The notes beneath the pieces were generated by a model, which saw nothing but the letters and a program-made list of their open reading frames with translations, made no database searches and was not told the origin of the DNA. From positions 1-37,363 of the IMG/VR virus record IMGVR_UViG_2718218309_000005: DNA of 37,363 nucleotides; one strand, 5' to 3'. How positions within the stretch are numbered: the first letter of the stretch is position 1; every line of letters starts with the position of its first letter. The position numbers and the translations under genes were made by a program. Shown here piece after piece: positions 34,810-36,232 of the stretch. This DNA is from a virus. Taxonomy: Duplodnaviria; Heunggongvirae; Uroviricota; Caudoviricetes.

Positions 34810-35889
34810 ATGGAAAATTTAAAACTTATTCCATTCAGTCAAGTAAATTTTGACGATACATTTTTTGATTCGTTAAAGAATGACTATGAACACGGTTTTA
34901 TTGAATGGTTCAACAGAAAAAGTCTTAATCCAGAAGAAAAAGCATATGTGCTTTATAATGACGATAATACCATTGATGGTTTTATGTATTTAAAAATTGA
35001 ATTCGGTAAAATAACTGATGTCACCCCATCAATTATCAATCATAAACATTTGAAAATTGGAACCTTTAAGTTCAATACAAAAAAAACATTACGAGGGCAA
35101 CGTTTTTTAAAAAAAATATTTGATCATGCTTTAAAAGAAAGAGTTAATGATATTTACGTTACTGTATTTGAAAAACATGAATATCTAATAAAACTATTCA
35201 AACTTTATGGATTCATTCTTCATGGCACAAAAAAAACCGCAAATGGTATAGAAAATGTTTTAGTAAGAGAGATGAATAGAAATCACCTCACGGGTGATAT
35301 ACTTTCTGATTACCCATATATAAATAATAAAAATAATGAGAATAAATACCTATTGTCAATACACCCTGAATTTCATACAAAACTTTTTCCTGATTCAAAA
35401 CTCGTCACTGAATCTCCAGATATAATCACGGATGTATCTCATGCTAATAGCATTAGAAAAATATATATATGTAGAATGTATGATGTAAAAAAAATAAAAA
35501 AACATGACATCTTAGTTATTTACAGAACAAGTGACGAAGAGAACAGAGCATACTATCGTTCTGTCGCAACGTCATTATGTGTAGTTGAAGATATTAGATA
35601 TATTGATTCTTTTCATAATGAAAATGAATTCATACAATATTGTGCACGATACAGTGTATTTTCTGAAAATGAATTGAAAAAATTTTATCAAACAAGAAGA
35701 TACCCTTACATTATTAGTTTTACATATAATCTAGCTTTACCTAAAAGAATAAATCGTGCTAAACTAATTAAAGAAATTGGTTTGAATCCTAAAAACCGTT
35801 GGGGTGTTGTTAAATTAACCGATAAGCAATTTGACGATATAATTAAACTTGGTGCTGTAGATGAAAGTATTATTGTCAATAAAACCTGA
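34810..35889 (+). CDS. cargo gene 2: GNAT-like N-terminal domain fused to an ASCH-like domain
   Basis: ..TLRGQRFLKKIFDHAL.. and ..IYVTVFEKHEYLIKLFKLYGFIL.. resemble GNAT motifs A/B; C-terminal part begins LLSIHPEF.. like gene 3. Confidence 0.55.
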   Translation: MENLKLIPFSQVNFDDTFFDSLKNDYEHGFIEWFNRKSLNPEEKAYVLYNDDNTIDGFMYLKIEFGKITDVTPSIINHKHLKIGTFKFNTKKTLRGQRFLKKIFDHALKERVNDIYVTVFEKHEYLIKLFKLYGFILHGTKKTANGIENVLVREMNRNHLTGDILSDYPYINNKNNENKYLLSIHPEFHTKLFPDSKLVTESPDIITDVSHANSIRKIYICRMYDVKKIKKHDILVIYRTSDEENRAYYRSVATSLCVVEDIRYIDSFHNENEFIQYCARYSVFSENELKKFYQTRRYPYIISFTYNLALPKRINRAKLIKEIGLNPKNRWGVVKLTDKQFDDIIKLGAVDESIIVNKT

Positions 35890-36232
35890 ATTTGTTGAAA
35901 AGATCCTTAATGGGACAAAGAAGTTTGAATTCAGGAAAGGTCTTTTCAAAAACCCGGATGTAAAATCTGTGGTTATTTATTCAACAATGCCTGTCGGTAA
36001 AGTTGTTGCTGAATTTGACATTGCAGACGTTATAGAAGACAAGCCAAGTATTGTATGGGAAAAAACAAGCCAATACGCAGGTATCAGCAAACAATTTTTT
36101 GACTCATATTTTCATAGCAAAGAAAAAGCCTTTGCTATAGAAATTGGCAATTTAAAAATCTATGATCAACCGCTTCATCTAAGTTCATTAGGTGATAACA
36201 TAACGGCCCCGCAATCATATCGGTACTTATGA
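35861..36232 (+). CDS. cargo gene 3: ASCH-domain protein
   Basis: MKVLLSIKPEFVEKILNGTKKFEFRKG.. typical ASCH N-terminus; start overlaps the end of gene 2 by 29 nt. Confidence 0.6.
   Translation: MKVLLSIKPEFVEKILNGTKKFEFRKGLFKNPDVKSVVIYSTMPVGKVVAEFDIADVIEDKPSIVWEKTSQYAGISKQFFDSYFHSKEKAFAIEIGNLKIYDQPLHLSSLGDNITAPQSYRYL

Follow-up and report, generated by a model that had tools for sequence, protein, structure and literature searches.

Does the prophage in IMG/VR record IMGVR_UViG_2718218309_000005 carry the same ASCH-like domain twice, once fused to an acetyltransferase and once as a free protein, and what could such a pair do? The stretch analyzed here (37,363 nt; the window) consists of a 186/P2-type prophage and a short host flank. 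Near its right end, the plus strand carries the repressor gene cI, three cargo genes that we call gene 1, gene 2, and gene 3, and the integrase gene, in that order. Gene 2 (34810–35889, +; 359 aa) encodes a GNAT acetyltransferase fused to a PUA-like domain, and gene 3 (35861–36232, +; 123 aa) encodes a free ASCH protein of the GKER subgroup, homologous to ZmASCH of Zymomonas mobilis. Our analysis shows that genes 2 and 3 are a member of the predicted GNAT-EVE + ASCH conflict system, PDC-M11 in PADLOC. We favor, with modest confidence, an anti-phage module expressed in the lysogen, in which gene 2 would act as writer and reader, gene 3 as eraser or ribonuclease, and gene 1 as an optional component.

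Both genes match the PADLOC pair over their full length. Gene 2 matched PDC-M11A at 9.6e-134 (residues 3–357 on profile positions 11–357 of 357), and gene 3 matched PDC-M11B at 2.2e-49 (residues 1–123). PDC-M11 is a two-gene candidate, whereas the cassette also holds gene 1, which has no PADLOC model. The architecture was described by Bell, Wolf, and Koonin (2020, BMC Biol, PMC7641849), who reported a large class of proteins with GNAT fused to EVE, in which an N-terminal PIN domain is often present, and credited an earlier description to Iyer et al. (2013). According to these authors, an ASCH gene belongs to almost all GNAT-EVE operons and an AAA_17 ATPase gene to many of them, and PIN-less GNAT-EVE proteins are common in beta- and gamma-proteobacterial prophages. 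The cassette resembles these operons in that a PUA-like domain is fused C-terminally to a GNAT domain and a small ASCH gene comes next, and it is PIN-less, as reported for such prophages. It differs from them in having neither AAA_17 nor PIN, in a fused domain that is structurally closer to ZmASCH than to a canonical EVE protein, and in the addition of gene 1 with its two predicted transmembrane helices, since the main text of Bell et al. mentions no membrane partner. In the literature, the name PDC-M11 turned up in a strain description and nowhere else, and Bell et al. were the sole source on GNAT-EVE. The domain repeat is therefore real but not a new discovery, because Bell et al. and PADLOC already describe it. 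The sequence-only reading that first drew attention to this locus missed both this precedent and the fact that gene 1 belongs with the pair. New here are the fold-level tie of the fused domain to its partner's homologue, the asymmetric loss of a motif, and the two-helix component together with the cI-int hotspot.

How far does the domain repeat hold? The open reading frames and motifs pointed out in the sequence-only reading were all recovered, with KYLLSIHPEF beginning at residue 179 of gene 2 (nt 35344). Its central claim of an ASCH-like domain present twice stood at the level of fold, fused and free, and did not stand at the level of sequence family. The pairwise alignment that it proposed gave a match, but a marginal one: BLASTP between the C-terminal half of gene 2 and gene 3 found 14/33 identities (E 0.004), and profile-profile comparisons with hhalign gave E 5.5e-4 (probability 30%) and E 9.7e-4 (22%) over 29–39 aligned columns. 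The likeness is weak and confined to the first ~30–40 residues at the N-terminal side. Because these sequence tests are marginal, the case for duplication lies in the comparison of folds. Two independent structure searches with the C-terminal half of gene 2 ranked ZmASCH first, among 48,164 and among 350,542 chains, and the top eight Foldseek matches were all ZmASCH chains (E 3e-7 to 8e-6). Gene 3, too, has ZmASCH as its solved homologue, so that the two modules, free and fused, have in common both a fold and the nearest solved relative, and the structure comparison thus speaks against two unrelated folds. A chance motif match between unrelated regions would fit the marginal direct comparisons, as well as the result that the profile of the gene 2 C-terminal half matched no PDB sequence. 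However, the first rank of ZmASCH in both searches argues against it, as do the strand order and the invariant Tyr of I-Y-[RS]-T that the two regions have in common, and we regard such a coincidence as extremely improbable.

The two copies are asymmetric: an octapeptide kept by the free ASCH protein is no longer present in the fused copy. In the gene 3 family, this invariant octapeptide reads G-x-K-[KR]-[FY]-E-F-R-K and is accompanied by the Tyr of I-Y-[SA]-T and by P-Q-S near the C-terminus. The corresponding residues in the gene 2 family are P-D-S-[K/I]-L-x-[T/N]-E-S, and the position of the Lys is occupied by K in 25, I in 19, and R in 2 of 46 sequences. The C-terminal half of gene 2 also fell below every Pfam threshold, with EVE as the best match (E 0.11) and no Pfam match to ASCH. 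Because no Pfam threshold was reached and the octapeptide is replaced, we do not file the fused domain under the ASCH family and consider it related by fold only. It is a PUA-like barrel nearest to ZmASCH, the domain called "EVE" in the literature.

Within gene 2, the N-terminal part (34810–35289, +; approximately residues 1–160) has a GNAT acetyltransferase fold, and R95, G96, and R98 of its beta4-alpha3 loop are invariant. The PUA-like domain of the ASCH/EVE type is joined to it C-terminally (35305–35889, +; residues 166–359), carries the family-wide invariant Y238, and is predicted to be a non-catalytic reader. This domain also contains a loop, D-V-S-H-A-N-S, at residues 205–211 (35422–35442), in a region where D208, S210, N213, and S214 are family invariants. 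The loop is the sole model segment with a predicted local distance difference test (pLDDT) score below 50, and it may become ordered only upon binding of a substrate or partner.

Gene 3 is an ASCH protein by sequence as well. It scored 28.8 bits (2.1e-6) against the Pfam ASCH model, above the cut-off of 21.2, and it matched ZmASCH (5guq) with a profile E of 2.8e-15 and in direct comparison with 28% identity (E 3e-15). Its invariant positions are G18, K20, E23, F24, R25, Y40, and P117-Q118-S119; four of them, G18, K20, E23, and R25 (GxKxxExR), were invariant in 40/40 gene 3 sequences. Both the Lys and the Glu of the GKER-type ASCH proteins are thus found in the octapeptide of gene 3. The sequence-only reading had proposed an amidohydrolase of the YqfB type as the partner, and this proposal was not borne out. 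YqfB-type N4-acetylcytidine (ac4C) amidohydrolases, small proteins of ~100 aa, have the barrel of the ASCH superfamily and, within the octapeptide, its Lys and Arg, but gene 3 has an invariant Glu where GK[T/S]R needs Thr, and no sequence match to YqfB was found at E values up to 1. Gene 3 also matched the C-terminal 120 residues of the NCBIfam model PRK12279, "50S ribosomal protein L22/unknown domain fusion protein" (5.2e-13). By this match, ASCH domains of the gene 3 type are fused to a ribosomal protein in some genomes, which points towards a link to RNA or translation.

ZmASCH (PDB 5GUQ/5GUS) offers two different precedents for what gene 3 could do. The first is RNA cleavage: ZmASCH binds and cuts single-stranded RNA in vitro, for which Tyr47, Lys53, and Ser128 are needed. 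On this model, the free ASCH protein would be the effector, a Mg-dependent single-stranded RNA ribonuclease, and GNAT-EVE a sensor or regulator that acetylates the ASCH protein or hands it RNA. Tyr47 and Ser128 have their equivalents in the invariant cleft residues Y40 and S119 of gene 3, and the N-terminal extension of gene 2 relatives is called a PIN ribonuclease by Bell et al., which makes RNA cutting a theme of the family. In the 501-aa relatives, the PIN identity of this extension could not be confirmed by us, and the label is that of Bell et al. Lys53, however, is not strictly conserved in gene 3, where it aligns with Gly46, and the neighboring Lys47 is not invariant. The ribonuclease activity is known from one in vitro study, a later study gives ZmASCH a deacetylase activity on tRNA, and a constitutively co-translated ribonuclease would need an inhibitor of its own. 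We therefore rate a ribonuclease effector as quite unlikely. The second precedent is removal of an acetyl mark. A 2026 preprint reported that 19 ASCH proteins, ZmASCH among them, remove ac4C from tRNA in vitro, and identified the Lys and Glu of the octapeptide as the catalytic dyad of GKER-type ASCH proteins in this reaction. We prefer the role of eraser for gene 3, with that of ribonuclease less likely. With this preprint, the writer/eraser idea is viable, and the toxin/antidote and acetylation/deacetylation ideas of the sequence-only reading are plausible.

Are the two genes a unit beyond this prophage? The ATG of gene 3 lies within the V-D-E codons of gene 2, so that 29 nt (35861–35889, +) are read in two different frames, an overlap that suggests translational coupling. 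A scan of species-representative genomes yielded 80 loci with gene 2-type proteins of 46–81% identity, which together with two E. coli loci gave a set of 82. The 80 loci came from Proteobacteria, Bacteroidota, Bacillota, Verrucomicrobiota, Acidobacteriota, Myxococcota, Campylobacterota, and Desulfobacterota, and at 90% clustering, nearly 2,000 gene 2 relatives in the same identity range (46–81%) were found across phyla. All 82 loci had a gene 3 homologue (82/82), which in 77 cases began within the 3' end of gene 2, in the same orientation. The pairing is thus near-obligate and supports a functional coupling of the two neighbors, as the sequence-only reading had suggested. An AAA_17 protein was adjacent in 16/82 loci. 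A Rhizobium relative adjoins SIR2 and DUF4365 genes, a setting in favor of defense. On a plasmid of Pseudomonas sp. CIP-10 (L112), an additional stand-alone GNAT gene of 198 aa follows the ASCH gene at 6088–6684. Plasmid-borne relatives of ZmASCH also include HTH-ASCH genes beside long GNAT-EVE genes.

Such a constant and tightly overlapping pair on a mobile element is also what an addiction module would look like. In this explanation, the GNAT domain would acetylate aminoacyl-tRNA like TacT, AtaT, and ItaT, the ASCH protein would neutralize it by binding and not by catalysis, and the main role would be prophage stabilization rather than defense. GNAT toxins that act in this way are established, and Bell et al. 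suggested aminoacyl-tRNA as the GNAT target. The TacAT, AtaRT, ItaRT, and KacAT systems indeed resemble the cassette in combining a GNAT protein with a small overlapping partner on mobile DNA and, possibly, in tRNA-directed acetylation. They differ from it in several respects: a Pfam scan of genes 1–3 found no RHH/DUF1778 protein, the cassette has the toxin first, its GNAT is fused to a 190-aa domain that would serve as a reader, and its partner looks enzymatic. Overall, we consider an addiction module unlikely, and retain the anti-phage module as the preferred reading.

Gene 1 (33718–34782, +) encodes a 354-aa protein of an uncharacterized family and had no match in Pfam, NCBIfam, PHROG, PADLOC, or PDB sequences. 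A hydropathy scan placed two C-terminal hydrophobic helices at approximately residues 309–328 and 331–352. A profile search assigned 1048 clusters (50% identity) to its family, and 202 of these scored below 1e-30. Very few residues are invariant among 40 diverse members, and the alignment was too diverse for pattern scans. In every readable context, GNAT-EVE and ASCH genes stood beside the gene 1 family. All 25 close relatives with enough flanking sequence had the pair as a neighbor (25/25), and so did six of six plasmid-borne relatives of 22–28% identity found by tblastn (Paracoccus, two Rhizobium, Methylobacterium, Pseudomonas, and Paenibacillus). A relative of 27% identity ends with a stop codon that overlaps, by 4 nt, the start of a PDC-M11A gene (501 aa); an ASCH gene comes next, and this arrangement was seen in 6/6 places. 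The position of the gene 1 family member varies: it may lie upstream, downstream, in convergent orientation, or between GNAT-EVE and ASCH-AAA_17. No distant gene 1 relatives came to light in three scans of viral contigs, each with a single protein. Based on the associations above, we propose gene 1 as a facultative third member of the system, which may serve as effector or sensor at the membrane.

On a Rhizobium anhuiense plasmid (L115, 3273–9075), two tandem systems surround a single member of the gene 1 family, with GNAT-EVE, ASCH, the gene 1 relative, HTH-ASCH, a long GNAT-EVE of 512 aa, and AAA_17 in that order. At two loci (L098 and L107), gene 1 is not conserved to the same degree as genes 2 and 3: identity to the window at L098 is 59% for gene 1, 85% for gene 2, and 98% for gene 3. 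This mismatch suggests an exchange of modules or a faster evolution of gene 1.

The location of the cassette bears on whether it serves the host or the phage. The run of same-strand genes is headed by the CI repressor gene (33036–33689, +; Pfam Phage_CI_repr 5.5e-30 and Phage_CI_C 2.8e-29), whose identity is also given by the annotation of phage repressor CI in a 94%-identical E. coli locus. Downstream, the slot is bounded by the prophage integrase (36311–37363, +; Pfam Int_N 1.7e-32 and Phage_integrase 7.2e-22), which adjoins host rcdA in related genomes. The 94%-identical locus has an identical gene order and is flanked by 186-type CII, Fil, and replication endonuclease genes and by host rcdA. 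The G+C content of the three cargo genes is 28–37%, compared with approximately 50–58% for the phage backbone. Gaps of 27–28 nt separate the cassette genes, and no convincing terminator was seen between cI and int.

The same integrase is present in approximately 1,100 E. coli genomes, and we compared the contents of the slot in seven sibling prophages. In two of the seven, it held nothing but a 63-aa open reading frame. One sibling each carried a KAP NTPase, a SNIPE-associated protein, an unknown 314-aa protein, a 260-aa protein with a 79%-identical GNAT-EVE/ASCH pair, and the three-gene cassette itself. In the sibling with the 260-aa protein (L002, E. coli WP5-W18-ESBL-11), this protein (4219–5001) is soluble and unrelated to gene 1, takes its place directly upstream of a 68%-identical GNAT-EVE gene, and is accompanied by a longer cI (299 aa). 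By eye, this protein showed an Rx4H motif, but an assignment as HEPN found no support in Pfam or PDB sequence searches. The slot thus presents variable low-G+C genes at a fixed position between conserved phage genes, as in the cargo hotspots of 186/P2-like prophages, and this location argues for a defense role.

It also bears on a further alternative, in which GNAT-EVE would modify nucleic acid on behalf of the phage, either by acetylating a DNA base (Iyer et al. 2013, as cited by Bell et al.) or by shielding the phage genome from restriction. The cassette lies in the lysogenic cI-int run and not among the lytic genes, the slots of siblings hold defense-type cargo, and PADLOC lists the pair as a defense candidate. 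Such a modification or counter-defense device is, in our judgment, very unlikely.

Elsewhere in the window, the terminase, portal, and replication gene A lie further inside. The left flank (288–2620) consists of host ybjM (Pfam YbjM 6.8e-53) and a gene for a ybjL-like permease; since rcdA and ybjJ lie beyond the integrase in relatives, the prophage is inserted between ybjL and rcdA. Directly after the portal gene, a 334-aa open reading frame of low G+C content (35%; 25952–26956, −) encodes a RelA/SpoT nucleotidyltransferase domain (Pfam 7.5e-20), matches PADLOC PDC-S33 in part (1.8e-16), and may be a second defense cargo of the small alarmone-synthetase toxin type. Another open reading frame of low G+C content (37%; 16305–17120, +; 271 aa), on the opposite strand inside the tail-gene block, gave a sub-threshold HNH_5 match (E 5.5e-4) and may be a further cargo gene. 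A resolvase/invertase gene (10145–10717, −; Pfam Resolvase 2.3e-53) adjoins two small open reading frames (10739–11679, +), an arrangement that suggests an invertible tail-fiber segment. In a viral contig of 37,665 bp (IMGVR_UViG_2675903324_000015; L100), close to the window in length, genes 2 and 3 are 100% identical to those described here and gene 1 is 99.7% identical; it is probably the same prophage or one almost identical to it.

How, then, would the anti-phage module work? Gene 2 would be an acetyl-CoA-dependent acetyltransferase rigidly held to a ZmASCH-like reader barrel. Without the catalytic octapeptide, this barrel would dock the enzyme on nucleic acid, most likely tRNA or another RNA and possibly modified phage DNA. 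Gene 3, translated from its overlapping start and equipped with the Lys/Glu octapeptide and the cleft Tyr and Ser, would act on the same class of ligand, either by removing the acetyl mark as an enzymatic antidote, as DarG does to DarT, or by cutting RNA. In the lysogen, it would keep the writer harmless until infection tips the balance, and a shutdown of translation or replication would follow. Gene 1 may be a membrane-anchored partner in a minority of systems, an added effector or sensor. Expressed together with cI, the cassette would protect the host from other phages. The likeness to DarTG, in which a nucleic-acid marking enzyme is combined with an enzyme able to remove the mark in phage defense, is an analogy only, as the folds and the chemistry are unrelated. 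A fully DarTG-like immune module built on nucleic-acid acetylation, with GNAT-EVE as writer on tRNA or another nucleic acid recognized through its degenerate ASCH barrel, the ASCH protein as eraser antidote, and a hitherto overlooked two-helix protein family as membrane sensor or killer, is conceivable but doubtful.

Several observations weigh against the anti-phage reading. The closest GNAT folds are those of protein N-terminal and polyamine acetyltransferases, not of known nucleic-acid or aminoacyl-tRNA acetylases. About 30 positions of the fused domain, most of them polar and those of the poorly modeled loop at 205–211 included, are invariant; a simple reader would not need that many, and the domain may have catalytic activity of its own. 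In the 2026 preprint, ZmASCH was inactive on free ac4C and its expression in E. coli caused no drop in ac4C, and its ribonuclease activity points to a role other than erasure. The gene 1 family occurs in only 7/82 GNAT-EVE loci, which makes it facultative and not essential. We infer the co-transcription of the cassette with cI in the lysogen from spacing alone, and no experiment on any PDC-M11 or GNAT-EVE + ASCH member was found in the literature.

The system is widespread and occurs in defense-type locations, and the reports of ASCH proteins as ac4C erasers now make the writer/eraser model testable with simple assays. The link of the gene 1 membrane-protein family to the pair and the cI-int hotspot of 186-like prophages also provide leads for the mining of defense systems. 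If the DarTG-like reading is true, this would be the first defense system with reversible RNA or DNA acetylation, and it would give the bacterial GKER-type ASCH "erasers" a biological role. If the writer/eraser model holds, reversible nucleic-acid acetylation would join the chemistry of bacterial immunity.
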